Positions 2,634 to 64,000 of a stretch of DNA of 64,000 nucleotides are shown here, piece after piece. The notes beneath the pieces are model-generated. The model did no database searches. It had not been told where the DNA came from and saw nothing but the letters and a program-made list of their open reading frames with translations. Location of the stretch: the NCBI GenBank assembly GCA_028695135.1, contig JAQVJM010000004.1:1696-65695 (forward strand), read 5' to 3'. Made by a program: the position numbers and the translations under genes. Within the stretch, counting starts at the first letter, position 1, and every line of letters begins with the position of its first letter. This DNA comes from Candidatus Moraniibacteriota bacterium (GTDB taxonomy: Bacteria; Patescibacteriota; Minisyncoccia; Moranbacterales; UBA9337).

Positions 2634-3105
2634 TAAATCCGAAATACGAAGTGCGAAATTCGAAACAAATCAAAATGACAGAAAACAAAAATACAAAAAA
2701 ATTTGATTTAGAGGATCGCACTTTTAAATTTGCTAAAAATGTCAGAGTATTTGTCAAAAAAATTCCCAAAAGCATTTCTAATTTTGAAGATGGGAAACAG
2801 CTGGTGCGTTCCTCCGGTTCTGTTGGTGCGAATTACATAGAGGCCAATGAATCTTTAGGTAAGAAAGATTTTCTGATGAGAATTAAAATTTCCAGAAAAG
2901 AGGCTAAAGAAAGTCGATTTTGGTTAAATTTAATAGATATTGGCAATGAGAAAGAATTGTAAAAGGAAAGAAATGATCTTGCCAATGAAGCGACAGAACT
3001 AATGATGATATTCGGACCCATTATTAGAAAATCAGAATAAGTTTAGAATTTTAATTTTTAGTTATTATTTCGGATTTCGAGTTTCGAATTTCGTATTTAA
3101 GACTT
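2634..3105. mobile_element. small cargo element: four-helix-bundle (23S rRNA intervening-sequence family) gene flanked by ~30-bp imperfect terminal inverted repeats built from CGAAAT(A/T)CGAA units
   Basis: left end CCGAAATACGAAGTGCGAAATTCGAAAC (2636-2663); right end TTTCGGATTTCGAGTTTCGAATTTCGTATTT (3063-3093) is its approximate reverse complement. Confidence 0.55.
2651..2962 (+). CDS. four-helix-bundle protein (23S rRNA IVS-associated protein family)
   Basis: family-typical segments EDRTFKFAKNV..KIPK, GANYIEANE, SRKEAKESRFWLNLI; 103 aa. Confidence 0.75.
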   Translation: MRNSKQIKMTENKNTKKFDLEDRTFKFAKNVRVFVKKIPKSISNFEDGKQLVRSSGSVGANYIEANESLGKKDFLMRIKISRKEAKESRFWLNLIDIGNEKEL

Positions 3106-7471: not shown

Positions 7472-8461
7472 TTATCTTATCACGCAATTCCGATTGTCGG
7501 TACTTTGCCCTAGAGAACCGATGCCCATCCCTCCGAGCAGGCTTCCGTTGGGAGTGAGATTCCTAAGATTGTCTCTAAGATCCTGAGAATAATCGCATAT
7601 TTCGCTGTTTATTTTATTCTGTATGCTTTGTCTGGCGTTTCCTATTCCTTGCTTGATTACCGATGAGGCGATTTTTCCGACGGCTATTCCCGCCATCTCG
7701 CCTACGTCTCCGGCATTGGCGAGAATGAGATTGTCCAAAGTGTTGGCCGAAGAGGTAATATCGGAAATCAAAGTTCCGGGAGCTATGACTATGCCATTTT
7801 CTTTTTGTCCTATATAACCCTGATAAGCCAAAGCCTGAGCTTCGGCTTTCTTTTTCTCTTCTTCAAGCTTTTTTTCGTATTCGCTCTGAGCTATCAGGGC
7901 GTAAGCGATCGGGTTATTGTTGGGCTTCATAGCTTCTGTGTAAGCGTCCCAAGATCCTTCATTAAACATCGAAACAAAATCGCAGGCATATTCTTCAAAA
8001 GTTGACTGCATGGAAGTCAAGTCCACTTCCACATTTACGCTTTCTTTAGCTCCCGCGCTCCGCCATTCAGCAAAGGATTCTCCTCCCGGACAGGCGGATG
8101 TGAAATTTCCGGATGTTTTTCCTCGGGTCGTAATGGTGAAAAAATCATTCATATGGGCCTGTGTGCTGGCATGGGGGCTTTTGAAAAGATAATCTTCCCA
8201 ATCCTGGATGAAGAGAGCTCCGGCCTGAGTAGTTCCAGCAACAATATTATTGACGGTATCCACGATCAGATCCAGGGCGGCTTTTTTGAGAGCGGCCAAA
8301 AGAGCGGCTCTCACTTGCAGGGAAACTTCTTCCATCATCTGTTTCTGGAATTGGGCAATAGTATCCGGCCAAGCAACAATTGCGGCGGAAGCGGGACGCG
8401 AAAGGGATAAATTCAAGCACATCGCCAAAATGATCGTTATAATCGCTATTTTTTTGCTCAT
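7472..8461 (-). CDS. hypothetical secreted protein (signal peptide)
   Basis: N-terminal MSKKIAIITIILAMCLNLSLSRPASAA signal peptide; no TM helix elsewhere; in an operon with the 8486-9589 ORF. Confidence 0.55.
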   Translation of the reverse strand: MSKKIAIITIILAMCLNLSLSRPASAAIVAWPDTIAQFQKQMMEEVSLQVRAALLAALKKAALDLIVDTVNNIVAGTTQAGALFIQDWEDYLFKSPHASTQAHMNDFFTITTRGKTSGNFTSACPGGESFAEWRSAGAKESVNVEVDLTSMQSTFEEYACDFVSMFNEGSWDAYTEAMKPNNNPIAYALIAQSEYEKKLEEEKKKAEAQALAYQGYIGQKENGIVIAPGTLISDITSSANTLDNLILANAGDVGEMAGIAVGKIASSVIKQGIGNARQSIQNKINSEICDYSQDLRDNLRNLTPNGSLLGGMGIGSLGQSTDNRNCVIR

Positions 8462-8485
8462 ACTTTATAATTTTTTTTATGCTTC

Positions 8486-9589
8486 TTATTCCGCGCTTTT
8501 TTCTTCCGAACTGGATTCCGAGCTTTCTTCCGCTTCAGAATTTTCCTCATTTTCCTTTTCTTCGGAAATATCTTTATTATCCAAAGAAACGTTGTTTGAA
8601 GTAGAATTTCTTTTTAAAAAACGGCTTTCAACTTTTTCGGAAAAATCAGTTGTCATAACCATCAACCTTTCCACTCCCGAGAAGCTTAGCATAGAAGCGA
8701 TCGGATCGTTCATATCAATTTTTACTTTATCTTTGAGGGATATGGCGTATTTGGCCAATTGCAATCCTTCGATATGGATGTCAATGGCACTTTCCGGAAC
8801 TTCTATCTCATTGAGAAGATCCAGAATGGTCTGCCCCCTCTCGGCCAAGTCATTGAAGTATTCTATCTCTCCCGGGTTGGATGATACCGCACCTATTTTG
8901 GATACGAATTCGTTAAAAAATGATTTTATGGATTCTTCGCTATTTATATCGTGAGGAAGGTTATTCGCCACTATGTAAAAAACGGCAGAAAGATATTCTT
9001 CTTCATCTTTTTTAATCTGTTGCGCCCTTTTTTCTTCGCTCAAGTTAGAATAATTCTGCTCTTTTATCTTTATTTCATCCTTGTTCACTTCGGGAAGCTC
9101 ATCTTCTTTTATATTTTCGCTCAAGCTTTCTTCTATCATCGCGTTTATAGTTTCCATAGAGACTGCTTGCCCTACGGCTGTGTTATTTTCCGAAGCCAAC
9201 GCAGCCAGCTTAGCTGATATTTCTTCGGTGAGATTATCGCTTTTATAGATATCGCTTTCTATAGAAGTTGCGTTTTTTGTTTTTTCTTCCGTAATTATCT
9301 TGTCTCCCGGTGCCGGTTTCAAGGGGTCATATCCGCTTTTTACTTCAGCGCCATCGGAATAGCCGTCTCCGTCAGTGTCAGGATTTTTTGGATCCGTTCC
9401 GTAAGTCAATTCCTCGCTGTCGCTCAATCCGTCTTGATCAAAATCATTGAATAAATTGTATTTCCCCAAGGAGTTTTCCTGGGCAAATATTGAAGCTGAT
9501 ATTCCAAAGACTGTTATCAGGAAAAAAATAAAAAAAGATTTTTTTACCTTATCCGCCGGCAAATATATTTCTTTTATTCCCATATTCAT
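8486..9589 (-). CDS. hypothetical secreted protein with calcium-binding DxDxDG (thrombospondin-type-3/dockerin-like) repeats and an acidic C-terminus
   Basis: signal anchor then DQDGLSDSEE and DTDGDGYSDGAEV motifs; very acidic low-complexity tail. Confidence 0.55.
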   Translation of the reverse strand: MNMGIKEIYLPADKVKKSFFIFFLITVFGISASIFAQENSLGKYNLFNDFDQDGLSDSEELTYGTDPKNPDTDGDGYSDGAEVKSGYDPLKPAPGDKIITEEKTKNATSIESDIYKSDNLTEEISAKLAALASENNTAVGQAVSMETINAMIEESLSENIKEDELPEVNKDEIKIKEQNYSNLSEEKRAQQIKKDEEEYLSAVFYIVANNLPHDINSEESIKSFFNEFVSKIGAVSSNPGEIEYFNDLAERGQTILDLLNEIEVPESAIDIHIEGLQLAKYAISLKDKVKIDMNDPIASMLSFSGVERLMVMTTDFSEKVESRFLKRNSTSNNVSLDNKDISEEKENEENSEAEESSESSSEEKSAE

Positions 9590-12745: not shown

Positions 12746-12773
12746 ATTATAAAGCATTTTGCATTTTGCATCT
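12746..12773 (+). repeat. heptanucleotide tandem repeat (GCATTTT)x4 in the typA 5' leader
   Basis: GCATTTTGCATTTTGCATCTTGCATTTT, 20 nt before the GTG start. Confidence 0.7.
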
Positions 12774-12792
12774 TGCATTTTAAATTTTCAAC

Positions 12793-16149: not shown

Positions 16150-16274
16150 ATTGAGCTGAGTTAAAAATTAAAAATTCAAATTTCAAAATTATAGTTTAAA
16201 TAATTTTCAAATTAAAATTAATCTTGTATTTATATTTTATAACGCATCTGATTTATTTCCAAACTTTTTTAAAA

Positions 16275-27204: not shown

Positions 27205-27278
27205 TCTACGAAATTACCTGCCCGAAATGCTACGCATATCGTTGCAGGCGGGCAAATCCATTGCAAATATACGAATTA
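27205..27278 (+). repeat. copy A of a ~70-95-nt intergenic repeat family (core ...TACCTGCCCGAAATGCTACGCATATCGTTGCAGGCGGGCAAATCC-TTGCAAAT-TACGAAT)
   Basis: about 90% identical to copy B at 28596-28680; the two flank the 27338-28600 gene as direct repeats. Confidence 0.7.
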
Positions 27279-28600: not shown

Positions 28601-28680
28601 CAACCCGCAAATTTACCTGTCCGAAATGCTACGCGTATTGTTGCAGGCGGGCAAATCCTTTACAAATCTACAAATTTTTT
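28596..28680 (+). repeat. copy B of the intergenic repeat family (full form with internal hairpin)
   Basis: CAACCCGCAAATTTACCTGTCCGAAATGCTACGCGTATTGTTGCAGGCGGGCAAATCCTTTACAAATCTACAAATT. Confidence 0.7.
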
Positions 28681-28754: not shown

Positions 28755-28850
28755 TATAAGCAACCCACGAATTTACAAATCCTTTACAAATTTACAAATT
28801 CTATCGTTAAAAAATAAATTCGTATATTTGCAGTTGGCTTGTAAACTAGC
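28755..28850 (+). repeat. copy C of the intergenic repeat family (short form lacking the 35-nt internal hairpin; three TACAAAT units plus a TTTGCAG..TTGTAAA tail)
   Basis: CAACCCACGAATTTACAAATCCTTTACAAATTTACAAATTC...TATTTGCAGTTGGCTTGTAAACTAGCGG; co-linear over ~95 nt with copy D at 61788. Confidence 0.7.
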
Positions 28851-28881
28851 GGATTTTAATTATTTATTTTCTATAAAGAGT

Positions 28882-29949
28882 ATGAAATACGAAAAAGAAT
28901 TTCCCTTGTTCAAAACGAAAATGGAGGGGGTTAATGAAAAGTTCGATTTGTCAAAAACTGAAGATCGATCTAGATATTTTCAAGCCAAGGCCGGCGATGA
29001 AATAGGAAAATTGAAAAATTTTTTTGCTGATGGCAATACTTTCATCGCTTATCTGGTGGCCAAAAAATCTGCCGGAAAGGGAACTTATACCAAATTAATG
29101 AAAGAAATTTTCGGCGATGTGATAGAACATATTTCCGCCGGTGATGTTGTAAGAAACACTTACAAGATTTTTCAGGAAGACTTGCCCGAGAAAGAAGAAA
29201 TTATGAAATATCTGCAGGAAAGATATCGAGGGTATATGTCCCTGGATGATGCCGTGGACGCTTTACTTGGAAAATCCCAGGATAAACTATTGCCTACGGA
29301 ACTTATCCTGACTCTTATCGAAAGAGAGATTGACAAAGTTCCGAGAAAAACTCTGTTTATAGATGGATTGCCTAGAGATATGGATCAAATTTCCTACTCA
29401 TTGTTTTTTAGAAATCTGATCAATTATAGGCAGGATCCGGATTTTTTTGTAGCCATTGATATCCCGGAATCCATAATTGATGAAAGAATGAAATATAGAG
29501 TGGTTTGTCCAATTTGCCAAACGCCAAGAAACACAAAATTATTCGCTACTCAGGATGTCGAATATGACGAAAAGGATAAGAAATTTTATCTGCTTTGCGA
29601 TGAGCATAAAGTTCGCATGATTGGAAAAGAGGGAGATGAAGCCGGAATTGAAAGCATCAGGGAAAGGACGGACAGAGACCAAAATTTGATTGATAAGCTG
29701 TTTGCCATCCACGGAGTCCCCTTGATATTGTTAAGAAACGCCATTCCGGTTGATAAGGCCAAAGATTATGTGGATGACTATGAACTGACGCCTGCTTATT
29801 CTTACAAAGCTGGCAAAAACGGAAAGGTTGAAATAATAGAAAGCCCATGGACGGCTATGGATGACGAAGGTGTCGAAGTCAATTCTTTATTGGCGCCACC
29901 GGTCATCGTTTCTTTGATAAAAAGCCTGGTTAAGGAGTTGAAGCTGTAA
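28882..29949 (+). CDS. divergent adenylate-kinase-like NMP kinase (P-loop, NMP-binding DGLPRD, zinc-ribbon LID) with N- and C-terminal extensions
   Basis: Walker A AKKSAGKGT; LFIDGLPRDMDQ resembles the AK (L)DGFPR motif; CPICQ...C..H lid; start taken at ATG 28882 (the ORF track start 28744 overlaps repeat C). Confidence 0.5.
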   Translation: MKYEKEFPLFKTKMEGVNEKFDLSKTEDRSRYFQAKAGDEIGKLKNFFADGNTFIAYLVAKKSAGKGTYTKLMKEIFGDVIEHISAGDVVRNTYKIFQEDLPEKEEIMKYLQERYRGYMSLDDAVDALLGKSQDKLLPTELILTLIEREIDKVPRKTLFIDGLPRDMDQISYSLFFRNLINYRQDPDFFVAIDIPESIIDERMKYRVVCPICQTPRNTKLFATQDVEYDEKDKKFYLLCDEHKVRMIGKEGDEAGIESIRERTDRDQNLIDKLFAIHGVPLILLRNAIPVDKAKDYVDDYELTPAYSYKAGKNGKVEIIESPWTAMDDEGVEVNSLLAPPVIVSLIKSLVKELKL

Positions 29950-42565: not shown

Positions 42566-43483
42566 TCATATCGTTATTTTACAAACCCTTCTTTTTCCGG
42601 CCAGGTCTTTGTAAAATTTGACCTTGGCTTTCGGAAAATAATTTTTTATGATTTTTTCGAGCTTATTTTTTTGTTCGGGAGAAATTTCAAAGAAAATCGC
42701 AAATCGCAAATCGCAAATCGCAAATCTTTCAGATATCTGCTTCAGCAATTTTTCATAGTGAGCGAGGCCGTAATTTTCAGAATAAAGCGAGGATCCCGGT
42801 TCGTATTTACTTACATCTTTCGGGGAAGAAGCATATATTTTTTTTGAGAGATAAGGAAGATTGGCGGCGATGATTAGCTTATCGAGCTTTAGCTTCGTCA
42901 GCTTCTCAGTTAGCGGCGAAAGGAGACTGCCATGAATGAATTTTATGTTTCGTGCGACATTATGTCTTTTGGAATTTTTTCTAGCTATTTTTAAAGCCAT
43001 TCTCGAAACATCGATTCCGTAAAGCTCATGATTATTATTTTTTGATTCCAATCGCTTTGCGATTGAGACAATGATATTCCCGCTTCCGGTACCTATGTCA
43101 CAAATCGCGTATCGCGTATCGCTCAACTTTTTATTTTTCTTAGTTATCCCAGTATTTTCTTGTCCCTTGTCGCTTGTCGCTTGCTTCAGAACGAGATCCA
43201 CGATCAATTCCGTTTCCGGCCGGGGAATGAGCGTGTGCTTGTTGACCTCAAAATCCAACCCATAAAATTCTTTGTGTCCCGTTATATATGCGATCGGCTC
43301 GTGTTTCATCCTTCTTTTTAAAAATGATCCAAGTTTTGCGTTTTGCGTTTTGCGAATCTCGTATTCAGGATGCGATAAAACAAACTCCCGCGGTTTTTTA
43401 ATCGCATGAGAAATCAAAATCTCCAGGTCTAGTGGAGATAATTTTTCATAATATTTTTTTAAAATGTCGGATATTCTGCTCAT
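42566..43483 (-). CDS. prmC: release-factor glutamine N5-methyltransferase PrmC (HemK); carries three heptamer microsatellites in frame
   Basis: SAM motif DIGTGSGNI, catalytic NLPY (NPPY variant); immediately downstream of prfA on the same strand. Confidence 0.8.
   Translation of the reverse strand: MSRISDILKKYYEKLSPLDLEILISHAIKKPREFVLSHPEYEIRKTQNAKLGSFLKRRMKHEPIAYITGHKEFYGLDFEVNKHTLIPRPETELIVDLVLKQATSDKGQENTGITKKNKKLSDTRYAICDIGTGSGNIIVSIAKRLESKNNNHELYGIDVSRMALKIARKNSKRHNVARNIKFIHGSLLSPLTEKLTKLKLDKLIIAANLPYLSKKIYASSPKDVSKYEPGSSLYSENYGLAHYEKLLKQISERFAICDLRFAIFFEISPEQKNKLEKIIKNYFPKAKVKFYKDLAGKRRVCKITI
42694..42726. repeat. (AAATCGC)x4.7 heptamer tandem repeat inside prmC; related tracts (ATCGCGT)x2.7 at 43104-43122 and (TTTTGCG)x3 at 43334-43354
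   Basis: seen in sequence; all lie inside the prmC reading frame (peptides AICDLRFAIF, RYAICDIG, TQNAKLG). Confidence 0.8.
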
Positions 43484-43564
43484 AAAGATAGAATATTTTT
43501 CATGTTTTTATCTTTCTCGTACTCGATAAATAGTGAATGTTTAATGGCCGATATCATATGTTTT

Positions 43565-44632
43565 TTATGGCTTAACAGCCATCTTCCTCCTGATATCTTC
43601 TTCCTTGAGCGATTCGGTTATATCATCAAGTTCACCGTCAAGGATAACCTCTATATTGTTCCAAGATTGTTTTATCCTATGGTCGGTGATCCTGTCTTGG
43701 GGAAAATTATAAGTTCGGATCTTTTCGCTCCGGTCTCCGGTTCCGATCTGGCTTTTTCTTTGATCTCCAAGCTTTTTGGCTTCCTCTTCTTCCTTTATCT
43801 GGACCAAGCGAGAGCGTAAAACTTTCATAGCCTTATCCTTGTTCTTGTGCTGGGATTTTTCGTCCTGGCAGGAGACGATGAGGCCGGTAGGCAGGTGGGT
43901 TATGCGGACGGCGCTGTTAGTGGTGTTTACGCTTTGCCCTCCCGGACCGGATGAAGCGAAGGTATCGATGCGCAGATCTTTCTCATCGATCTTGATGTCG
44001 ACTTCTTCAGCCTCCGGCAATACGGCGACGGTGGCGGTGGAAGTGTGGATCCGGCCGGATTTTTCTGTTTCAGGGATCCGTTGGACCCTATGCACTCCGG
44101 ACTCATATTTCATTTTTGCATAAACATCTGTCCCGTTGATTTCGAATATGATTTCCTTAAATCCTCCTATTCCGGTCTGGTTCGAATTTAGGACGGAAAT
44201 GGACCATCCGTTTTTTTCGGCAAATCGGCTATACATCCTGAAAAGATCTCCGGCGAAAAGTCCGGATTCGTCTCCTCCGGCTCCGGCTCGGATTTCCACG
44301 ATTACATTTTTGCCGTCATTTGGATCTTTGGGTACCAGTTCCATTTCCAATTTTTTCCCCAGATCTTCCTTTTTCCTGGAAAGTTCGATATTTTCTTCCA
44401 TAGCCATCCGCTTCATTTCCTCGTCAGTTTCGGTATTCATTATTTCGGCGTTACCTTTCATATCATGCTCCGCCTTCTCCAGTTCATTTATGATTACGAT
44501 GATTTCCTCCAATTCCGCCTGTCTTTTGCCCAACTCGGCCATTTTTTTCGAATCGGAAACCAGCTCAGGCGAGCTGAGCTTTTCTTGTATTTCGGCGTAT
44601 TCTTTTTTAACAGCTTCGATCCGCGATTTCAT
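43565..44632 (-). CDS. prfA: peptide chain release factor 1
   Basis: PxT-type domain, GGQ motif ([11 protein letters not shown]); start at the internal ATG 44632. Confidence 0.9.
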
Positions 44633-52575: not shown

Positions 52576-54009
52576 ATGAAAAAATATTTTTATATAACAA
52601 CGACCCTTCCCTACGTGAATGATAAGCCTCATATCGGTTTTGCCAGCGAGATCGTTTTGGCCGACGCGCGGGCGCGTTTTGAGGGGTCTTTGGGAAAGGA
52701 AGTAGTTTTTAATACCGGAACGGACGAGCATGGAGCAAAGATCTGGCAGAAAGCTCGAGAAGAAGCAAGAGACGTTCAGGAATATGTGGATGAATACGCA
52801 GCTAAATTTGACGAGCTTAAAAAAATGTTGAATTTAAGCTATACAAATTTTATCAGGACGACTGACGAGAAGCATTTGAGGGCGGTCCGGGAAATGTGGA
52901 AAAGAGTAGATCAAAACGGATATATTTATAAGAAGAAATACAAGATAAAATATTGCATAGGTTGTGAATTGGAAAAGACCGATAGCGAACTTATCGACGG
53001 TTGTTGCCCGCTTCATCCGGGGAAAGAATTGGAAATCATCGAAGAAGAGAATTATTTTTTCAAATTCAGCGCATTTCAAGAAAAACTTTTGGAGCTATAC
53101 AAAGATAATCCAGATTTTGTAATCCCCCAAAAGAGGCTCAACGAAATAAGCTCTTTTGTGGAACGCGGGCTGGAAGATTTTTCCGTTTCAAGGCTCAAAG
53201 AAAAAATGCCTTGGGGCGTGCCGGTTCCGGGGGACGACAGCCAAGTGATGTATGTCTGGTTCGATGCCCTGACCAATTATATTTCCACTCTCGGCTGGCC
53301 GGATGACAAAGAGAATTTCGAGAAATTTTGGGGAACCGAAGAAAACCCGAATGCCGTCCAAATCGCGGGAAAAGACAATCTCCGCCAGCAGTCGGCTATG
53401 TGGCAAGCGATGCTTATAGCCGCTGATTTGCCTACAAGTAAGCAGGTGTTTATTAATGGATTTATAGGGGTAGATGGGCAGAAGATGAGCAAGTCCCTAG
53501 GGAATGTGATTTCCCCAAAAGAAATGGTGGCAAAATTCGGAGTGGACGGAACAAGATATCTTCTTCTTACCAAGGGGACATTCGGAGAAGATAGTGATAT
53601 CTCTTGGGAAAAGTTAACCGGTAAATACAATTCAGACTTGGCTAACGGTTTGGGGAATTTGGTTTCGAGAGTTATTGTGCTTTCTGGAGATTTGGATTTT
53701 AAAACTTCTGGATCCGACTCTGTTTTTTCTGAGGAAGATGTGAAAATGATGAATAAGATGAACATGGATAAGATTTTAGATAATATCTGGAATATTGTGC
53801 GTGAAGATAATAAATATATTGAAGACAGAAAACCTTGGGAGCTAAAGAAAGAAAATCAAGAAGAATTTGAAAAAGTAATGAAAAAACTTGTCTCAGATCT
53901 CTATCATATATCTCAACTCTTAACACCTTTCATGCCGGAGACTTCTGAGAAAATTAAAAAAGCTCTTGAGACAAAAGAAAGAGTTATTTTATTTGAAAAG
54001 ATAAGATGA
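52576..54009 (+). CDS. metG: methionine--tRNA ligase (short form lacking the C-terminal dimerisation domain)
   Basis: HIGH variant PHIGF, zinc knuckle CIGC...C..H, KMSKS. Confidence 0.9.
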   Translation: MKKYFYITTTLPYVNDKPHIGFASEIVLADARARFEGSLGKEVVFNTGTDEHGAKIWQKAREEARDVQEYVDEYAAKFDELKKMLNLSYTNFIRTTDEKHLRAVREMWKRVDQNGYIYKKKYKIKYCIGCELEKTDSELIDGCCPLHPGKELEIIEEENYFFKFSAFQEKLLELYKDNPDFVIPQKRLNEISSFVERGLEDFSVSRLKEKMPWGVPVPGDDSQVMYVWFDALTNYISTLGWPDDKENFEKFWGTEENPNAVQIAGKDNLRQQSAMWQAMLIAADLPTSKQVFINGFIGVDGQKMSKSLGNVISPKEMVAKFGVDGTRYLLLTKGTFGEDSDISWEKLTGKYNSDLANGLGNLVSRVIVLSGDLDFKTSGSDSVFSEEDVKMMNKMNMDKILDNIWNIVREDNKYIEDRKPWELKKENQEEFEKVMKKLVSDLYHISQLLTPFMPETSEKIKKALETKERVILFEKIR

Positions 54010-54482
54010 ATAAAATAGTTTCCAATCTGATCCTGATTTATGATGATAAAAAAATTCTTTTGGGAATGAAAAAGCGGGGATTTGGCGAGGGTAAATGGAA
54101 TGGATTTGGCGGAAAACCTCGTGAAAATGAGACTATAAAAAAAGCAGCAGTGAGAGAGCTTAAAGAAGAAGCTTTTATTGATTTGAAAAATCTCGAAATC
54201 TTAAAAGAGAGAGGAATTATCAATTTTCACTTTGAAGGTAATGATGAGATTCAAGAAGTTCATTTCCTATCTGTTTCCAGCGATGATATTATCGGAGAAC
54301 CTCAGGAAACGGAAGAGATGCTTCCCAAATGGTTTGCGCATAGCGAAATTCCTTTCGGAAAAATGTGGGTAGATGACCCACATTGGATGCCACACTTACT
54401 GAAAGGTAAAAATTTATCCGGAGAGTTTTATTTTAATGAGGATGGAAGTGCTATTTTAGAAAGTAAGTTGGAAGTTAAATGA
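54006..54482 (+). CDS. NUDIX hydrolase (MutT-like)
   Basis: Nudix box GKWNGFGGKPRENETIKKAAVRELKEEA; start overlaps the metG stop (ATGA). Confidence 0.8.
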   Translation: MNKIVSNLILIYDDKKILLGMKKRGFGEGKWNGFGGKPRENETIKKAAVRELKEEAFIDLKNLEILKERGIINFHFEGNDEIQEVHFLSVSSDDIIGEPQETEEMLPKWFAHSEIPFGKMWVDDPHWMPHLLKGKNLSGEFYFNEDGSAILESKLEVK

Positions 54483-55071: not shown

Positions 55072-55920
55072 ATGTTTGATTCACACGCTCATGTAAATTT
55101 CAAGGCCTTTAAAGATGATGGAGACGATGTTATAAAGAGGTCTTTAGAAAGCAATACCTTTATAATTAACGTTGGCTCACAGTACAGTACAAGCCAGCGA
55201 GCTGTTGAATATGCTCAAAAATTTGAAACTGGAGTGTGGGCGGCCGTAGGGATTCATCCGATTCATATAAAAGTTAAAAGTGAAAAGTTAAAAGTCGAAA
55301 GTTCCACCCCCTCTCAATCTCCCCCTCAGGGAAGGGGAGAAGTTTATTTTGAAGAATTTGATTATGGTGAATACAAAAAATTAGCGGAAAATGAAAAAGT
55401 AGTGGCGATTGGAGAAGTCGGGCTGGATTATCATCACTTTGACGGGGTAACCGGAATTTCAGAAATAAAAGAAAAACAGAAGAAAGTTTTAAAAGAATTT
55501 ATCAAGCTTGCTAATGAAGTGAAAAAACCAATGGCTATTCACTGCTGGGATGCTTATGATGATTTATTTGAAATACTAAGAAAGAATCCAATTGAAAAAA
55601 GAGGGGTGGTGCACAGTTTTATTGGAAGCTGGAAGACGGCGCAGAAATTTATTGAAATGGGATACAAAATCGGACTCAATGGAATAATCACCTATTCGGA
55701 ATCTTATGATAAGCTTATCCGAAATATTGACTTGAAAGATGTCTTGATCGAGACTGACTGTCCGTATCTCAATCCCAAACCTCTGCCAAGAGAAGATAGA
55801 AATGAACCGATAAATGTAAAGTATGTCGCCCGAAAAATTTCTGAAGTAAAAGGGATTGAGATTGATGAAGTTGAAAGAATTACAGCCGAAAATGCCAAAA
55901 AATTATTCAAAATAAGATGA
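55072..55920 (+). CDS. tatD: TatD-family metal-dependent DNase/hydrolase; carries an in-frame composite repeat insertion
   Basis: DSHAHVNF start, GIHP, EVGLDYH, HCW(D), HSF(IG) motifs. Confidence 0.85.
   Translation: MFDSHAHVNFKAFKDDGDDVIKRSLESNTFIINVGSQYSTSQRAVEYAQKFETGVWAAVGIHPIHIKVKSEKLKVESSTPSQSPPQGRGEVYFEEFDYGEYKKLAENEKVVAIGEVGLDYHHFDGVTGISEIKEKQKKVLKEFIKLANEVKKPMAIHCWDAYDDLFEILRKNPIEKRGVVHSFIGSWKTAQKFIEMGYKIGLNGIITYSESYDKLIRNIDLKDVLIETDCPYLNPKPLPREDRNEPINVKYVARKISEVKGIEIDEVERITAENAKKLFKIR
55265..55345 (+). repeat. in-frame composite insertion in tatD: AT-rich (AAAGTTAAAAGTGAAAAGTTAAAAGTCGAAAG) unit plus GC-rich palindrome (CTCCCCCTCAGGGAAGGGGAG)
   Basis: translated as KVKSEKLKVESSTPSQSPPQGRGE between conserved GIHP and EEFD blocks. 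Confidence 0.7.
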
Positions 55921-55978
55921 AAAATGACCGGATCAAGAGTCAGAAGTATCCTGAGAGACATTGCCATTTTTAATTTTA

Positions 55979-56007
55979 TTGACATTATCATTTTCTTGTT
56001 CTAAAAT
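55979..56007 (+). promoter_or_regulatory. putative atp-operon promoter (TTGACA-17-TAAAAT)
   Basis: consensus -35 and a strong -10 with 17-nt spacing, ending 6 nt before the atpI-like ORF. Confidence 0.5.
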
Positions 56008-56012
56008 GGAAT

Positions 56013-56279
56013 ATGTTTAGAGAAAATTTGAAATCAGAGGATTTTAAAAAAAAGGAAGAAAAGAAGCAAATTAACAGCCAGTGGTCTGTTTTTTCTTTGG
56101 CAATGGAGTTGGGCTATTTAATTGCTATTCCTTTGGTTGCGACGGCGTTGCTAGGAAGATTTTTGGACAAAAAATTCGATTCTTCACCCTTGTTTTTATT
56201 GGCTGGAGTTTGCATAGCGATTATCTTGACAACATACTTAGTTTACAAAAAAACCATTTCGGTTCTTAACGACGAATAA
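56013..56279 (+). CDS. ATP synthase protein I-like small membrane protein (AtpI/AtpZ-like)
   Basis: 88 aa, two TM helices, located immediately upstream of atpB. Confidence 0.5.
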   Translation: MFRENLKSEDFKKKEEKKQINSQWSVFSLAMELGYLIAIPLVATALLGRFLDKKFDSSPLFLLAGVCIAIILTTYLVYKKTISVLNDE

Positions 56280-56289
56280 CGGAATAAAG

Positions 56290-57066
56290 TTGGGCAATTA
56301 CAATCAAATGGAAATTTCACTGGTTCCAGAATTAATAACTAATTTTGCAGGTTTCCCCGTCACAAACTCTGTTTTGGTGACTGCCATAGTGAGTATTTTG
56401 ATTATCTCAATTTCGCTTTTTATCAAAAAAAATATTTCAATGATACCTAAGGGCTTTCAGAATATAATCGAATATGTTCTGGAGGCTCTTTTAAATTTAG
56501 TCGATAGCGTTACTGGAGACAAAAATCAGACAAAAAAAATTTTTCCTCTTGTGGCTACCATATTTATTTTTGTAATTATTTCAAATTGGATCGGACTGAT
56601 TCCGGCTCTTATACCGGGAGGAACAATAGGCGTCAATCAGATCCATAACGGAGAAAGAATCCTGGTGCCTTTCATAAGGAGCGATAGCGCCGATCTTAAT
56701 ATGACTCTCGCCCTGGCTCTCATTGCCGTAGCTAGCGCTCAATTTATGGGAGCTACAGTGTTGGGCATAAAAAAATATGCCGGAAAATTTTTAGTCAGTC
56801 CTCTCAAAAAGCCCTATTTCATAGGAACATTTGTGGGGATTTTGGAGATTATATCTGAATTTGCCAAGATAATCTCATTTTCTTTTCGTCTTTTCGGAAA
56901 TGTTTTTGCGGGAGAAGTCCTTTTGACGGTTATGTTAATGCTCGTTCCGTATATACTCCCGTTGCCTTTCATATTTCTGGAGATTTTTGTGGGATTTATC
57001 CAAGCGCTTGTTTTTGCTATGCTTACTCTGGTTTTCATGAAGATGGCGACGGAAGAAGCGCATTAG
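56290..57066 (+). CDS. atpB: F0F1 ATP synthase subunit a
   Basis: conserved FRLFGNVFAGEVLL (essential Arg) and PLPFIFLEIFVGFIQALVFAMLT. Confidence 0.9.
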   Translation: MGNYNQMEISLVPELITNFAGFPVTNSVLVTAIVSILIISISLFIKKNISMIPKGFQNIIEYVLEALLNLVDSVTGDKNQTKKIFPLVATIFIFVIISNWIGLIPALIPGGTIGVNQIHNGERILVPFIRSDSADLNMTLALALIAVASAQFMGATVLGIKKYAGKFLVSPLKKPYFIGTFVGILEIISEFAKIISFSFRLFGNVFAGEVLLTVMLMLVPYILPLPFIFLEIFVGFIQALVFAMLTLVFMKMATEEAH

Positions 57067-57140
57067 GATTGATCATTAACCATTGATCATTAATCAATGT
57101 CGAATGTCTAATGATTAATGCTCAATGTTTAATATTTAAT
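57067..57140. repeat. atp-operon spacer motif cluster (TGATCATTAA x2, CATTAATCAATG, CTAATGATTAATG, GCTCAATGTTTAAT)
   Basis: atpB-atpE spacer; palindromic ATTAATCATT-type units seen in sequence. Confidence 0.7.
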
Positions 57141-57205
57141 TAAATTAAGTTACAGTTGGCTAATTCACATTTCCTGTGGATTAGAAACTGTCAACCAAAA
57201 ACTAA

Positions 57206-57478
<273 letters not shown>

Positions 57479-57514
57479 ATTTTTTCAGCTTACGGCTTGA
57501 CGACCGGATACAGT

Positions 57515-57605
57515 TAATGATTCTGATTAATAAAATTAATCATTAATCATTAACCATTGATCATTATCATTTTTCGCTTAGTGCTCAATGTTTAATGTTT
57601 AATAA
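57515..57605. repeat. atp-operon spacer motif cluster (AATTAATCATTAATCATTAACCATTGATCATTA; GTGCTCAATGTTTAATGTTTAAT)
   Basis: atpE-atpF spacer. Confidence 0.7.
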
Positions 57606-57611
57606 AAAACA

Positions 57612-58100
57612 ATGGAATTACTAGAAAATTTAGGGATAAATGGAAAAATATTATTGGCTCAGGTGGTGAACTTCTTCATTTTATTCTGGATCCTAAAAAA
57701 ATTTGCCTATAAGCCCGTTTTAAATTTACTGGAGGAAAGAAGCAAAAAAATTGAAAAAGGACTTAAAGATGCGGAGGTTGCCCGGAAGAAACTTGAAGAA
57801 ACCGAAATTGAAAGTAAAAAAATATTGTCTGATGCCAGAAAACATTCTCGAGAAATAATAAAAGAAGCTGAAATTCGGGCGGAAACCAGCAAAAGGGAAA
57901 TCGCCGAAGAGACAAAGCATAAAGTCGATAAGATGATTTCTGATGCGAAGAAAAAGATAGAAGAAGAGAAGGACAAGATGGTGGTGGAAGTCAAAAATGA
58001 GGTTGCCGACCTAGTGTCTCTGGCTACGGAAAAAGTGCTGGAAAAAAAAGCGGATAGCGAGGATGATAAAAAAATTATTAAAAAAGTTATTGAAAATTAA
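57612..58100 (+). CDS. atpF: F0F1 ATP synthase subunit b
   Basis: single N-terminal TM then a long charged helix; position in the operon. Confidence 0.85.
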   Translation: MELLENLGINGKILLAQVVNFFILFWILKKFAYKPVLNLLEERSKKIEKGLKDAEVARKKLEETEIESKKILSDARKHSREIIKEAEIRAETSKREIAEETKHKVDKMISDAKKKIEEEKDKMVVEVKNEVADLVSLATEKVLEKKADSEDDKKIIKKVIEN

Positions 58101-58144
58101 GCATTAAACATTAATCGTTGAGAATATCGATTAATGATCAATGA
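58101..58144. repeat. atp-operon spacer motif (GCATTAAACATTAATCGTTGAG = reverse complement of CTCAACGATTAATGTTTAATGC; CGATTAATGATCAATGATTGA)
   Basis: atpF-atpH spacer. Confidence 0.7.
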
Positions 58145-58567
58145 TTGATAAATAATGTCATGCGCATCAGCGCCAAGCAATATTCCAAAGCTCTGTATGA
58201 TCTCACTAAGGGCAAGGATGAAAAGGAATTAGATTCCATTGTTTTTAATTTTGCAAGCGAGCTGAGAAGAAGGAGAAAGCTCAATTTATCGGATGATATA
58301 ATGAAGATTTTTTCTGAAATTTATAACAAGGAGAACAGAATTATGGAAGCGGAAATCGTGAGCGCCAGGGAAATCGGCAATGAACAAATGATTGGAATAA
58401 AAAACTTCCTGAAGAACAAATATGGCGCCGATAAAGTCATATTGGATCCAAAAATGGATAAAAATATAAAAGGAGGGATAATAATCAGAATGGGAGAGGA
58501 TATAATTGACGGAAGTATTTTAAAAAAAATGAAGAAGCTTAATAATTTATTAAAAAATAATGTTTAA
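58145..58567 (+). CDS. atpH: F0F1 ATP synthase subunit delta (OSCP), short form
   Basis: operon position between b and alpha; C-terminal GGIIIRMGEDIIDGSI delta signature. Confidence 0.75.
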   Translation: MINNVMRISAKQYSKALYDLTKGKDEKELDSIVFNFASELRRRRKLNLSDDIMKIFSEIYNKENRIMEAEIVSAREIGNEQMIGIKNFLKNKYGADKVILDPKMDKNIKGGIIIRMGEDIIDGSILKKMKKLNNLLKNNV

Positions 58568-58633
58568 ATTTATATGTCGATAGCCGGCGACTGCCCGCCT
58601 ATCGGCGGCAGCCGGTTGCTTAAAATTAAAATT

Positions 58634-60130
58634 ATGAATAAAGATTATATCGTTGAAAAATTAAAAAAGCAGATTGAAAGTTTTAAAGGAGAAATCAGAA
58701 CGGAGAAAATAGGAAGGGTGATAGAGGTGGGAGATGGCGTAGCCAGAATCGAAGGCCTTAGTGAAGCTATGGCTTCGGAGATGATTGAATTTTCAAATGG
58801 AACCATGGGAGTGGCTCTCAATCTGGAGGAAGATCAGGCGGGTGCTATTATTCTGGGAGGATCCAAAGGAATCAAGGAGGGAGATGAGGTAAGGTCTGCG
58901 GGAAAAATCCTTTCTGTTCCTGTGACTGAAAAAATTATCGGAAGAGTCATAAATCCTTTGGGGCAAGCTATAGATGGAAAAGAGGAAATCAAGTCAGAAA
59001 AATATTATCCTATTGAAAAGATCGCTCCGGGAGTTATCGAACGGAGGTCGGTCCACCAGCCGGTTCAGACCGGAATCAAGGCTATTGATTCAATGATACC
59101 CATCGGAAGAGGACAAAGAGAGTTGATAATAGGAGACAGGCAGACCGGAAAAACCGCTATCGCGATTGACGCGATAATCAATCAGGCCGGACAGGATATG
59201 ATTTGTATTTATGTGGCGATTGGCCAGAAAGAATCCAGAGTGGCGAGAATCGTGGCCGAATTGGAAAAAAGAGGCGCTATGGAATATACGACTGTAATTG
59301 TTGCTGGCGCTTCCGATCCGGCGGCATTTTCTTTTATCGCTCCTTATTCTGGAGTCGCAATCGGGGAATATTTCATGGATCAGGGAAAAGATGTTTTAAT
59401 CGTTTATGATGATCTTAGTAAGCATGCTTGGGCATATCGCCAGATTTCTTTGATTTTAAAACGTCCGCCGGGACGCGAGGCTTATCCGGGAGACGTTTTT
59501 TATTTACACTCAAGGCTTTTGGAGAGAAGCGCCAAATTGAACGAAGATCATGGAGGAGGATCGATAACTGCGCTTCCGATTATTGAAACACAAGCCGGAG
59601 ATGTTTCCGCCTATATCCCGACCAATGTAATTTCCATAACAGACGGGCAAATCTTTTTGGAAACCGACCTGTTCAATAAAGGGATGAAACCGGCGATTAA
59701 CGCGGGGCTCAGCGTTTCGCGGGTTGGATCCTCAGCCCAAATAAAAGCTATGAAAAAAGTGGCTGGAAAGATAAGGCTGGATCTGGCGCAGTTCCGCGAG
59801 CTAGAAGCTTTCGCTCAATTTGGTTCGGATCTTGATCAAGACACAAGAAGGCAGATAGAAAGAGGTAAGAGAACCGTGGAAATATTGAAACAGGATCAAT
59901 ATGCGCCCATTAGAGTTGAGAATCAGGTAGCTATATTATACGCTCTTGTGAACGGTTTTATGGATGACGTAGAAGTTGAAAAAATATCAGAATGGGAAGA
60001 AAATTTCCATAAATATATGAAAGCCCAGAGGAAGGATTTATTAGGGCTGATAGCTGAGGAGGGCGATCTTTCGGAAGAGATGGCAAAAGAGTTAGAAGAA
60101 GCGATAAAAGATTACAAGAAGACATTGTAA
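58634..60130 (+). CDS. atpA: F0F1 ATP synthase subunit alpha
   Basis: Walker [16 protein letters not shown], alpha C-terminal domain; start at ATG 58634 (the track ORF begins 58574 and includes an upstream GC hairpin). Confidence 0.9.
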
Positions 60131-60226
60131 ATTAATTATTAAACATCAAACATTAATCATTGAGCATTAAATACCCATATTTTTATATCAATAATGATTG
60201 ATGATGAACAATGAATAGTTAACGAA
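60131..60226. repeat. atp-operon spacer motif cluster (AACATTAATCATTGAGCATTAAAT; CAATAATGATTGATGATGAACAATGAAT)
   Basis: atpA-atpG spacer. Confidence 0.7.
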
Positions 60227-61183
60227 ATGAGCAATGGCAAGGAGATCCGGAGGAGGATCAAGTCGATAAATAACACAGGAAAAATAACTCGGGCAATGGA
60301 GATGGTTTCGGCTGCCAAAATGAGAAAAGCTACCGAAAGCGTCTTAAAGATCAGGGCTTATGCCCATAGCGCTTGGAGCGTCCTTACCAATCTTGCTCGG
60401 GCTTTTGAAAATTATGACCACGGCCTCTTGGAAGTCAGAGAAGTCAAGAGCGTGCTGATAATAGCAGTTACATCCAATAGGGGGCTTTGCGGGTCATTTA
60501 ACGCGCAAATTATAAAAAAAATAAAAGAAGAAATCGGGAATCCTCAGAGCCTGAAAATAAATAGAATCGGGATGAAAAAGATCGAATCGACTGTTGCCGA
60601 TAAAGATTTGAAAATTGATTTTATAACAGTCGGAAGAAAAGGAGAAAATTTGGTGAGAAAACTCGGTAAAGAAATCATAGCCGCTTTCCCCGAACTTACC
60701 TATTTGCCCGGAATTGAAAACGTGAGGCCTTTGTCAAAGATAGTGATTGACGAATACTTGAATAAGAGGTATGACAAGGTGGTGATAGCTTATACGGACT
60801 ATATTTCCACTATGAGGCAGGAGCCTAAAATAAGGCAAGTTCTTCCGGTTTCCAAGATCGATTTAGAAAAACAAATTGCCGAGATGGATAATCTGGCCAA
60901 GGAATATGGATTGAAAAAACCAAAAATGGAGTACAAGGTGGAACCTAACCCGAAAGAAGTTCTGACCCATATTTTTCCGAGGTTGATCGAGATGCAGATT
61001 TATCACGCTATTTTGGAATCCAATGCCTCCAAGGAGTCATCCAGGATGCTAGCTATGAGAAACGCAACTGACGCGGCCAATGAAATGAGCGAGGATCTGA
61101 CATTAGCATACAATCAGATAAGGCAGATGAAGATCACCCAGGAGATCGCTGAGATAAGTGCAGGAAGAGCGGCGCTGGAGTAG
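60227..61183 (+). CDS. atpG: F0F1 ATP synthase subunit gamma
   Basis: N-terminal IRRRIKSINNTGKITRAMEMVSAAKMRKA and C-terminal coiled-coil ITQEIAEISAGRAAL. Confidence 0.9.
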   Translation: MSNGKEIRRRIKSINNTGKITRAMEMVSAAKMRKATESVLKIRAYAHSAWSVLTNLARAFENYDHGLLEVREVKSVLIIAVTSNRGLCGSFNAQIIKKIKEEIGNPQSLKINRIGMKKIESTVADKDLKIDFITVGRKGENLVRKLGKEIIAAFPELTYLPGIENVRPLSKIVIDEYLNKRYDKVVIAYTDYISTMRQEPKIRQVLPVSKIDLEKQIAEMDNLAKEYGLKKPKMEYKVEPNPKEVLTHIFPRLIEMQIYHAILESNASKESSRMLAMRNATDAANEMSEDLTLAYNQIRQMKITQEIAEISAGRAALE

Positions 61184-61208
61184 GATTAAGAATTATGAAT
61201 TAAGAATT

Positions 61209-61790
61209 ATGAATGTGGAATTCGAAGCGACATTTAAAAATATCAGCAAAGATGAATTTAGAGATAAGCTAAGAGATTTAGGCGCTGAAATGGTTAAGGA
61301 AGAATTTTTGCAGAAAAGAAGCACATTCAATGTGCCAAGAGGTTGCAAGATTAATGAAAGCTGGCTAAGGGTTAGAGACGAAGTAGATAAGATAACTTTG
61401 ACATTCAAATCAGGCGGAAAGCAATCCGCCATAGAAGATCAAAAAGAGATAGAGCTTAAGGTTGATAATTATGAAGAAGCTAAAAAATTTTTGGAAGTGC
61501 TGGGTTGCAGAAAGAAATCTTATCAGGAGACAAAGAGAGAAATCTGGAAATTGGATGAAGTAGAAGTTATGATTGACGAATGGCCTTTTCTTGAACCTTT
61601 TGCGGAGATCGAAGGCAAAAATGAGGAAGAAGTAAAGAAAGCCAGCGAGAAATTGGGATTTGATTATAATGATGCAGTTTTTGGTCCGGTTAGCATACTA
61701 TATTCCGAAAAATACGGAGTGACTGAGAAATTTGTAAATAATGAAGTCAAAGAAATTTTGTTTAATGGCGATAATCCATTTATAAGATAA
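61209..61790 (+). CDS. CYTH-domain protein (class IV adenylyl cyclase / triphosphate tunnel metalloenzyme family) inserted in the atp operon
   Basis: EFEATFK N-terminal beta-strand with conserved Glu pair, ESWLRVRD, ITLTFK, EIELKV, EVMIDEWPFLEPFAEIEG; start taken at the second ATG of a 14-nt tandem duplication. Confidence 0.7.
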   Translation: MNVEFEATFKNISKDEFRDKLRDLGAEMVKEEFLQKRSTFNVPRGCKINESWLRVRDEVDKITLTFKSGGKQSAIEDQKEIELKVDNYEEAKKFLEVLGCRKKSYQETKREIWKLDEVEVMIDEWPFLEPFAEIEGKNEEEVKKASEKLGFDYNDAVFGPVSILYSEKYGVTEKFVNNEVKEILFNGDNPFIR

Positions 61791-61885
61791 CCCACGAAAC
61801 TACAAATCCCATACAAATCTACAAATATATAAAAATAAATTTCTCATTTGTAGCTTTGCAGCAGAGTTGTAAATTCGCAGTTAAT
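61788..61885 (+). repeat. copy D of the triple-TACAAAT intergenic repeat family (AACCCACGAAACTACAAATCCCATACAAATCTACAAAT...TTTGCAG...TTGTAAATTCGCAG)
   Basis: co-linear with copy C (28755-28850) over ~95 nt; lies between the CYTH gene and atpD. Confidence 0.7.
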
Positions 61886-61906
61886 AAAATAATTTAAAAA
61901 ACTTAA

Positions 61907-63367
<1,461 letters not shown>

Positions 63368-63458
63368 TTCATCATTTATCATTAAATATTAATCAATCAT
63401 TATGATATGGCTTAATTGTACCCGATGTTTAATGATTAATAATCAATGATTAATTAAA
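63368..63458. repeat. atp-operon spacer motif cluster (ATTAATCAATCATT; CCCGATGTTTAATGATTAATAATCAATGATTAATT)
   Basis: atpD-atpC spacer. Confidence 0.7.
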
Positions 63459-63887
63459 ATGGATAACATTAAATTAAAAATAATAACTCCCGAGAGAATC
63501 ACCTATGAAAGCGATGGCATAAATCAGGCTACTCTTCCGGTTTCGGACGGGGAAGTTACGATTTTGCCGAATCATAGATCGTATATCGCTTCGCTAAAGC
63601 CTGGAGAAGTCATATTGAAAAAAGACGGAGAAGAGATTGATCTGGCCATCTCGGGAGGTTTTATCGAATTTCACGATAATGAGCTTGTGGTTCTGGCGGA
63701 TGAAGCGGAAAGAGCCGAGGAGATTGATTTGGAAAAAGCCGAAGAGGCCAAGAAAAGAGCCGAAGACATCAAGAACAAAGTTATTTCTACAGATGAGGCC
63801 GAATATGCCAGAGTGGCAGCGGCGCTGGAAAAGGAATTGGCCAAGATAAAAGTGGCCAAAAAATATCTGAGAAGAAGAGGGTTATAA
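63459..63887 (+). CDS. atpC: F0F1 ATP synthase subunit epsilon
   Basis: N-terminal beta-sandwich (KLKIITPER...LPNH) and C-terminal helical hairpin. Confidence 0.85.
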   Translation: MDNIKLKIITPERITYESDGINQATLPVSDGEVTILPNHRSYIASLKPGEVILKKDGEEIDLAISGGFIEFHDNELVVLADEAERAEEIDLEKAEEAKKRAEDIKNKVISTDEAEYARVAAALEKELAKIKVAKKYLRRRGL

Positions 63888-64000
63888 TTTTTTATAAAAT
63901 TTAAGATCGTTAACAATTAAACTAAAAAAAATGGAAAGGGAAAATTCAATGGAAACTGAAAAAAACATCGAAGCGATTGCTGAAAGCAATTTTTCTACAT

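Follow-up and report, generated by a model that had tools for sequence, protein, structure and literature searches.

Within the CYTH/triphosphate tunnel metalloenzyme (TTM) superfamily, cyclases have been told from phosphatases by a small number of active-site residues. Vogt et al. compare the two groups by the residues found at the positions of A54 and E135/E137 of SaTTM, the Sulfolobus acidocaldarius protein Saci_0718: class IV adenylate cyclases (AC-IV) carry the motif HFxxxxExExK, their xRxR has a small residue instead of its first Arg, and the second Glu of ExE is Ala in them, while thiamine triphosphatases (ThTPases) are marked by W/YxRxR, and other CYTH proteins are triphosphatases (PMC8233210). 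The plant pyrophosphatases TTM1/2 also have the W/Y motif, and SaTTM forms no cyclic nucleotides (PMC8233210). ThTPase activity, for which Tyr39-Lys65 is the catalytic dyad, has so far been documented in metazoan CYTH proteins only, and no specific bacterial ThTPase is known; thiamine triphosphate (ThTP) is a product of the F1Fo ATP synthase (PMC8615392). Here, a CYTH gene located between atpG and atpD was analyzed in a 64,000-nucleotide (nt) stretch of a Candidatus Moraniibacteriota bacterium genome (GCA_028695135.1, contig JAQVJM010000004.1, positions 1,696 to 65,695), referred to below as the window. The gene probably codes for an active two-metal triphosphate hydrolase, shares a transcript with the F1 genes, and came to its present site by an ancient relocation, not by mobility.

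The roles of CYTH proteins in bacteria are little known, and the formation of ThTP by ATP synthase is a long-standing puzzle. The protein described here has 193 amino acids (aa), is found phylum-wide and strongly conserved, carries a ThTPase-type Trp, and, in one clade, has its gene between those for the gamma and beta subunits. Literature searches found no paper linking CYTH proteins with Patescibacteria or with atp operons.

The CYTH gene and its predicted activity

The gene extends over positions 61209-61790 of the + strand, is intact, and is the only open reading frame (ORF) between atpG, directly upstream (F1 gamma subunit, 60227-61183, + strand; Pfam PF00231, ATP-synt, E 1.3e-85), and atpD, directly downstream (F1 beta subunit, 61913-63367, + strand; Pfam ATP-synt_ab, E 4.7e-72). 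Its product matches the Pfam CYTH profile PF01928 (E 1.9e-11; 44.5 bits, cut-off 23.2) and an NCBIfam profile. The Pfam matches and the coordinates therefore bear out the original prediction of a CYTH gene at this junction, although the interval then assigned to it, 61184-61885, was too wide. The first ATG, at 61195, does run into a stop, as had been noted, forming a two-codon mini-ORF (ATG AAT TAA, 61195-61203), and the second ATG, at 61209, opens the CYTH gene. This second ATG is taken as the true start because the N-terminus MxIE[YF]EATF is common to all 40 aligned CYTH homologues. The public gene call P0001 (210 aa) begins at an upstream GTG, at 61158, indicating that gene callers place the CYTH start too early; the 14-nt repeat described below is present there too and is thus not peculiar to the window's copy of the sequence.

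The spacer between atpG and CYTH measures 25 nt and is unstructured as RNA (folding free energy, dG, -0.8; z -0.2), and a scan of the + strand found no intrinsic terminator between atpG and atpD. With such a spacer and no terminator, the gene presumably shares the transcript of the F1 genes, and its expression would follow theirs. A weak sigma-70-like promoter match (TTAATA-17-TAAAAT; 61881-61909, + strand) ends 4 nt before the start of atpD; its significance is uncertain, the scan having returned 26 promoter-like sites against 18.3 expected, so that the match does not by itself indicate function.

The protein family comprises 714 protein clusters at E<=1e-3, the best 120 of which are 54-77% identical over their full length, and PF01928 is carried by all 120 homologues listed. 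Relatives occur in 405 species-representative genomes, with identities of 52-77% across the family. The genome titles point to Patescibacteria, among them Moranbacteria, Woesebacteria, Falkowbacteria, Uhrbacteria, and Staskawiczbacteria; other phyla would be added by a few automatically assigned labels of metagenome-assembled genomes. In a 40-sequence alignment, 44 columns are invariant. The conserved residues comprise T8 and R37 together with the invariant E4, E6, W52, R54, R56, K67, K109, R110, E111, D123, E133, and E135. The basic (xRxR and Lys) and acidic (ExE on beta8) tunnel residues are present, with R54, R56, K67, K109, R110, E111, D123, E133, and E135 aligned to the SaTTM motifs; in the hidden Markov model alignment, W52 corresponds to A54 of SaTTM and E133/E135 to its E135/E137.

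An AlphaFold2 model built from the same alignment (predicted local distance difference test, pLDDT, 95.5; predicted template modelling score, pTM, 0.88) consists mostly of beta-strand, with 10 strands and 5 helices. When this predicted model was compared by Foldseek, the top 36 matches in the PDB were all CYTH/TTM proteins, the best being the Pyrococcus structures 1yem and 2dc4, SaTTM, human and mouse thiamine triphosphatase, and the Yersinia pestis cyclase YpAC-IV. The modelled fold is thus that of the eight-stranded CYTH/TTM beta-barrel tunnel. The hallmark ExExK is altered: E4 and E6 are invariant, but 90% or more of the 40 sequences have Thr8 where Lys is expected, giving ExExT. T8 aligns with the Lys of 'IEVKF' in 2dc4 and, in human ThTPase, with K11. 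In the window family, R37-x-T39 takes the place of 'DxY'; both this strand and ExExT depart from all characterized members. The gene product is an uncharacterized member of the CYTH/TTM superfamily, belonging to a Patescibacteria-specific subfamily with ExExT and WxRxR, and its operon setting is unusual but confined to one lineage.

By the published motif rules, the enzyme is unlikely to be a class IV adenylate cyclase. The HF motif is absent, since only three residues precede the first Glu in the protein and its homologues (M-x-I/V-E), and neither AC-IV substitution is present: R54 is not a small residue and E135 is not Ala, both positions being invariant. The NCBIfam model TIGR00318 (cyaB) is passed only marginally (61.8 bits against a cut-off of 57.95), in conflict with these motif tests. 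Because the AC-IV rules fail, TIGR00318 and JGI probably mislabel the protein as a cyclase, and the 'adenylate cyclase' database labels on these Patescibacteria proteins are probably wrong as well.

The invariant W52-L-R54-V-R56 corresponds to the ThTPase-type WxRxR. W52 aligns with W53, and K67 with K65, of human ThTPase (the sequence used is identical to 3tvl), in a weak hhalign alignment (E 0.032, probability 1.6%). The Tyr39 position aligns with Thr39 in the 1yem alignment, and the hhalign alignment to ThTPase is gapped in that region. ThTPase was not recovered by sequence in a PDB profile search at E up to 10; the link to it rests on the motif, the weak hhalign alignment, and the fold. 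The overall residue pattern looks phosphatase-like, with a ThTPase-type aromatic residue. The enzyme would cleave the terminal phosphate of a triphosphate compound with the aid of two metal ions, candidate substrates being inorganic triphosphate (PPPi) or triphosphates that bear an aromatic group, for example thiamine triphosphate or nucleotides. The activity and substrate of the enzyme are inferred, as are co-transcription and any functional tie to ATP synthase.

Gene order in relatives and descent of the placement

Gene order was compared in 80 genome loci found with the CYTH profile and in a separate set of 80 metagenomic loci anchored on atpG (37-85% identical to that of the window); individual loci are denoted by L numbers. 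The order atpG-CYTH-atpD occurs in only one of the 80 genome loci, L007 (Parcubacteria bacterium M6-OD1-3), and CYTH lies elsewhere than in the atp operon in, for example, L003 (Moranbacteria) and L005 (Ryanbacteria). Overall, the gene is not near atp genes in about 80 of 87 loci. None of the 80 atpG-anchored Parcubacteria/Patescibacteria loci has CYTH in the atp operon, and in many of them atpG is followed directly by atpD, in agreement with the earlier view of the gene as an addition to a canonical gamma-beta junction.

Every close relative that was looked up (P0002, P0003, P0005, P0008, and P0020) is encoded inside the atp operon, in varying positions. The order gamma-CYTH-beta is found in L001/L002, L087, and L007, and atpG of the window is 85-92% identical to atpG of L007, L001, and L087. 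L089 has the order gamma-113aa-dehydrogenase-CYTH-Cys-beta, L090 beta-CYTH-(split HD)-Cys-epsilon, and L088 CYTH-Cys-epsilon. In L091 (atpG 85% identical), a clean 50-nt spacer separates gamma from beta (3250-3299), and a relaxed tblastn search of gamma-beta junctions, including those of L091 and L092, detected no trace of CYTH.

The element denoted Cys in these gene orders is a Cys-rich ORF of about 76 aa (C-x-TGL...CCWG-x-C-x-x-CG), which had no Pfam match and lies directly downstream of CYTH in both atp-embedded and non-atp loci. It adjoins CYTH in the basal atp-embedded loci (L088:682-918, L089:4851-5081, L090:4814-5047) and in the non-atp loci L038 (6584-6811), L014 (6625-6861), L010 (6605-6763), and L044 (6816-7037). 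Since the ORF also follows CYTH in these four non-atp loci, it was probably relocated together with CYTH, and its product may work together with that of CYTH. A 15-codon remnant of it persists in L007 (~6594-6641), and the window, L001, and L087 have lost it.

Among ORFs lying no more than 3.5 kb from CYTH, the recurrent ones in the 87 loci were NUDIX in 15 loci, two unknown small proteins in 12 and 11, the Cys-rich ORF directly downstream in 8, an adjacent Maf in 8, UvrA in 6, a pyrophosphatase-like protein in 5, and HD phosphohydrolase in 4. These neighbours would lend the gene's surroundings a flavour of nucleotide and phosphate house-cleaning. A NUDIX hydrolase gene also occurs in the window (54006-54482), about 2 kb upstream of the atp operon, where it overlaps the stop codon of a methionyl-tRNA-synthetase-like ORF; in L001/L002, the atp operon is closely followed by a leucyl-tRNA-synthetase-like protein to which a NUDIX domain is apparently fused.

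In a neighbour-joining (NJ) tree of atpG, the CYTH-containing operons form one clade, with L091 and L092, both short contigs without a CYTH gene at the junction, nested inside it. The loci of the atp-embedded clade also form one clade in the NJ tree of CYTH; both trees were simple NJ trees without support values. Among the atp-embedded CYTH genes, synonymous divergence (pS) is saturated at 0.65-0.86, and nonsynonymous divergence (pN) is 0.13-0.26, compared with a pN of 0.05-0.18 for atpG; as dS is saturated, only bounds on pN/pS are given. The CYTH gene of L007 has a 1-nt deletion after codon 4 (L007:5990-6015), which is either a frameshift or a sequencing error. Together with the empty junction of L091, this deletion may reflect ongoing loss.

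Agreement between the CYTH and atpG trees, synonymous saturation, and a low pN/pS fit one old move of CYTH into the F1 part of the operon, after which the gene would have descended vertically under purifying selection, with local rearrangements and losses now and then. In most Patescibacteria, the gene lies outside the atp operon, typically beside NUDIX, Maf, pyrophosphatase-like, and HD genes. In this scenario, it would have been moved among the F1 genes in the ancestor of a single Parcubacteria clade, probably with the Cys-rich ORF. Later local shifts would have produced gamma-CYTH-beta or beta-CYTH-...-epsilon, the partner ORF being lost on the branch leading to the window.

The original prediction had described the gene as accessory-looking and as a possible mobile insertion. 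Its phylum-wide conservation as a family, an atp-embedded clade that mirrors the atpG tree, low pN/pS, and the lack of any mobility gene all speak against that description. The CYTH phylogeny that had been suggested as a check proved congruent with atpG and lends no support to insertion. Likewise, at the atpG-atpD junctions of the closest relatives (L087, L001/L002, and L007), the gene occupies the same position without the TACAAAT element, so that within the immediate lineage it is present at this site with no such repeat association.

Other genes have entered these operons. Some of the atpG-anchored loci carry unrelated small inserts, among them 23S_rRNA_IVP (a four-helix bundle), GIY-YIG, PDDEXK_3, ORF6N, and a repeat-flanked unit in L092; in several related Parcubacteria, small genes of these selfish types lie between atp genes, at L007:4540-4899 and 8206-8490, L087:953-1300, L095:3402-3836, L107:8007-8378, and L122:4887-5426. 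The atp spacers are thus insertion hot spots in this group. The unit of L092 (902-1851; atpG 82% identical) consists of direct repeats of about 110 nt (~955-1062 and ~1632-1745; GTCATCTCGAGCG.AACGATAGTGGAGTCGAGAGATCT...GTCGAAATGACA) flanking a small minus-strand ORF, and could be a candidate structured RNA or a mobile unit. In the Uhrbacteria locus L060 (228-1790), atpC, a 135-aa ORF, and CYTH follow one another on one strand with short gaps. The CYTH gene of L060 is far from the atp-embedded clade in the tree, and its position appears to be an independent atp-proximal placement.

Repeats and the remainder of the atp operon

The 14-nt tandem duplication reported at the start of the gene is exact: TAAGAATTATGAAT occurs twice, head to tail, at 61187-61200 and 61201-61214, and fills the 25-nt spacer. 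It is equivalent to a heptamer array of ATTAAGA with 4.3 units (61185-61214, + strand; period 14 and 100% match by Tandem Repeats Finder, TRF). An exact adjacent 14-mer would not be expected by chance in 64 kb (estimate ~1e-3). TRF finds 28 period-7 arrays in the window, however, compared with 0-6 in twenty order-2 Markov simulations; most are in spacers, and each has its own heptamer (e.g., 2635-2665, 3067-3098, 12754-12781, 16161-16221, 42694-43749, 55268-55303, 57068-57096, 57535-57571, 60138-60171, and 63360-63383). As one of these 28 window-wide arrays, the 14-nt duplication is not an insertion scar. The corresponding spacer of L087, the closest relative, contains a different, analogous repeat, AAGATTTAYGATTT twice, with the mini-ORF ATG ATT TAA, and that of L001 contains another direct repeat. 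Several lie inside long ORFs, including a cluster of five at 42694-43749 and one in a TatD-like gene.

The 3′ side of the gene is formed by copy D (61790-61880) of a TACAAAT palindrome, in which three direct heptads (61801-61826) face three imperfect inverted ones (61846-61871). Elements related to the triple TACAAAT at 61801-26 occur at 28650 and 28774, and its inverted partner at 61846-71, giving 4 matches against 0.01 expected. As RNA, copy D forms a long imperfect hairpin (dG -16.1, z -3.7) with no U-tract after it. The element belongs to a four-member family. Copy A (27211-27277; repeat family D12), with a 36-nt internal insert, lies between a terminator-like hairpin and an SLT_2 gene, and copy B (28610-28676), 88% identical to A, directly follows that gene; A and B thus flank the SLT_2 transglycosylase gene, as the original prediction had stated of this element. 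Copy C (28763-28853) is full length, like D. Folded alone, copy C showed no significant structure (z -0.3), so that a conserved RNA structure is not claimed for the repeat family, and an Rfam scan of 55900-64000 gave chance-level snoRNA matches only, with no family for the repeat. Copies C and D each lie about 30 nt upstream of the start of a gene concerned with adenine-nucleotide energy (an adenylate-kinase-like gene at 28882-29949, and atpD), and both end in TTGTAAAnTnGCnG; they could be a shared cis-regulatory site and not a selfish repeat. The TACAAAT element is absent from all relatives' CYTH loci, where the CYTH-atpD spacers measure 38-172 nt and are of unrelated sequence. Absent from these orthologous loci, the repeats do not support the insertion with which they had been associated.

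The complete F-type atp operon, all on the + strand, starts with ATPase_gene1 (56013-56279), followed by atpB (56290-57066), atpE (57209-57478), atpF (57612-58100), atpH (58145-58567), and atpA, which ends at 60130; beyond atpD, it includes atpC (63459-63887). The longest ORF of atpA starts at 58574. Relatives start at the equivalent of 58634 (MNKDY... compared with MSKDYIIEKLKKQ in L001), so that 58634 is probably the real start. Most atp spacers in the window contain a long AT-rich hairpin made of a heptamer array and an inverted copy (ATTAATC-like; D1/D6), namely those at 57067-57208, 57479-57611, 58101-58144, 60131-60226, and 63368-63458 (fold z -5.9, -2.8, -1.5, -2.9, and -1.0). Copy D is the local form of these hairpins, which probably act at the mRNA level and may tune processing, stability, translation, or stoichiometry. 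The repeats are species-level spacer furniture, not an insertion vehicle. They recall the short tandemly repeated repetitive (STRR) heptanucleotide sequences of cyanobacteria and palindromes of the repetitive extragenic palindrome/bacterial interspersed mosaic element (REP/BIME) type, which are likewise genome-wide spacer units forming mRNA hairpins; unlike those, the arrays of the window have unrelated sequences and a separate heptamer for each array. For the study of mRNA processing in the ultra-small bacteria of the candidate phyla radiation, these arrays and hairpins, which occur throughout the genome, may be of interest.

Functional readings and comparison with known systems

Several observations weigh against a co-transcribed triphosphate hydrolase that is tied to the F1 genes by old relocation. 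With Thr8 in place of the ExExK Lys and Thr39 apparently in place of the dyad Tyr of ThTPases, catalysis may differ from that of characterized TTMs, and the 'equivalog' model TIGR00318 is just over its cut-off, hence the cyclase naming by annotation pipelines. The linkage to atp genes amounts essentially to one ancestral event plus L060, which is compatible with chance and inertia; the atp spacers of these bacteria tolerate many unrelated insertions; the gene is apparently frameshifted in L007 and missing from the junction of its sister L091, so the placement is dispensable; and the trees are simple NJ trees without support. Should the protein prove to be a generic triphosphatase unconnected with ATP synthase, the locus would be an ordinary lineage-specific variant of gene order.

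A closer coupling, in which a ThTPase-like 'proof-reader' of F1Fo is made with the F1 block and removes ThTP or another aberrant triphosphate side product such as PPPi, is suggested by the invariant W/YxRxR motif of ThTPases (PMC8233210), by W52 and K67 at the W53 and K65 positions of the human enzyme, and by the ThTPase structures among the Foldseek matches (E 3e-8, TM-score normalized to the query, TMq, ~0.6). CYTH also stayed in the F1 block through at least three rearrangements, L060 offers a second independent atp-proximal placement, and no bacterial ThTPase is known (PMC8615392). This coupling is nevertheless unlikely: the gene is away from atp genes in most family loci, the linkage reflects about one or two independent events, close to chance (estimate ~1% per lineage) and therefore a weak statistical case, the ExExK Lys is Thr, as the Tyr39 equivalent appears to be, the hhalign match to ThTPase is weak, and plant TTM1/2 pyrophosphatases share the W/Y motif. 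Its most specific form, a first bacterial ThTPase-type enzyme recruited into the F1 block to destroy ThTP or other aberrant triphosphates from F1Fo, possibly with the Cys-rich partner, is slightly less likely still; if true, it would be genomic evidence that side-product synthesis by ATP synthase matters physiologically in bacteria and is actively policed.

It is quite improbable that the gene is a neutral hitch-hiker in a permissive, highly expressed operon, or a structural or assembly factor for F1. The insertion hot spots in atp spacers, the loss or decay of either CYTH or the Cys-rich ORF in L007, in L091, and in the window, and the occurrence among the Foldseek matches of Mediator Med18/20, in which the CYTH fold serves as a non-catalytic scaffold, would suit these roles; the invariance of all catalytic-type acidic and basic tunnel residues argues for an enzyme, and retention in the F1 block despite rearrangement and saturated divergence suggests a benefit of co-expression. 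The absence of a functional relation, however, overlaps with the relocated triphosphate hydrolase preferred here. A CyaB-type cyclase making cyclic AMP as a signal tied to energy state, to which the TIGR00318 score, the JGI name 'adenylate cyclase class 2' of several homologues, and good Foldseek matches to YpAC-IV structures (TMq 0.69-0.71) point, is very improbable, as all three AC-IV features fail and SaTTM, the closest solved relative by sequence, forms no cyclic nucleotides; the signalling option of the original prediction is contradicted on these grounds. There is scarcely any likelihood left for a repeat-bounded cassette recently put between atpG and atpD and co-opted there. It would account for the presence/absence polymorphism of the junction among related Parcubacteria, and it has parallels in the selfish small genes of atp spacers and the repeat-flanked insert of L092; non-random repeats do flank CYTH on both sides. 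The left heptamer array and the right TACAAAT palindrome are unrelated, however, so that no matching repeats or target-site duplication bound the gene, and repeats of both kinds are spread over the genome; where relatives share the gene order, their spacers differ in sequence and contain no TACAAAT element; no transposase, integrase, or nuclease ORF adjoins CYTH; and congruent trees, synonymous saturation among the atp-embedded copies, and membership of one of the phylum's most conserved small protein families all speak against such an insertion. The preferred reading therefore remains that of a two-metal triphosphate hydrolase inherited vertically within the F1 block.

Among described systems, CyaB (Yersinia pestis 2fjt/3n0z; TIGR00318) resembles the window's protein in superfamily, size, and superposition (TMq ~0.7). 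Unlike CyaB, to which it is only 14% identical, the protein has no HF motif, and it retains the Arg and Glu for which AC-IVs have other residues. NeuTTM (3typ) and E. coli YgiF (5a60), for which literature searches found no paper placing them in an atp operon, share with it the CYTH/TTM fold, predicted two-metal triphosphate hydrolysis, and a plausible house-cleaning role; they are structurally farther (Foldseek E 8e-5 and 3e-6), and YgiF has an extra CHAD domain. The mammalian 25-kDa ThTPase, THTPA (3tvl, 5a64), has the same fold (Foldseek E ~3e-8), the ExE pair, and WxRxR, with W52 at the thiazole-stacking W53 and K67 at K65. As ThTP comes from F1Fo, the operon setting would be meaningful for this likeness. 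The sequence relation to THTPA is marginal (hhalign E 0.032), its Tyr39 appears not to be conserved in the window family, and ExExT stands in place of ExExK.

SaTTM and the Pyrococcus proteins 1yem and 2dc4 are the best PDB matches both by sequence (E 1.6e-6, 1.3e-5, and 1.1e-3) and by Foldseek (E 3e-11 to 1e-9; TM-score normalized to the target, TMt, ~0.76). Unlike these archaeal proteins, to which it is only about 25% identical, the window family has Thr for the ExExK Lys, Arg37/Thr39 where they have Asp/Tyr, and Trp where SaTTM has Ala54; it is also restricted to Patescibacteria and lies within the atp operon in the present clade. Like them, the protein is predicted to be a single-domain beta-barrel of about 180-200 aa and retains the two Arg of xRxR and the two Glu of ExE, which is the pattern of a triphosphatase.

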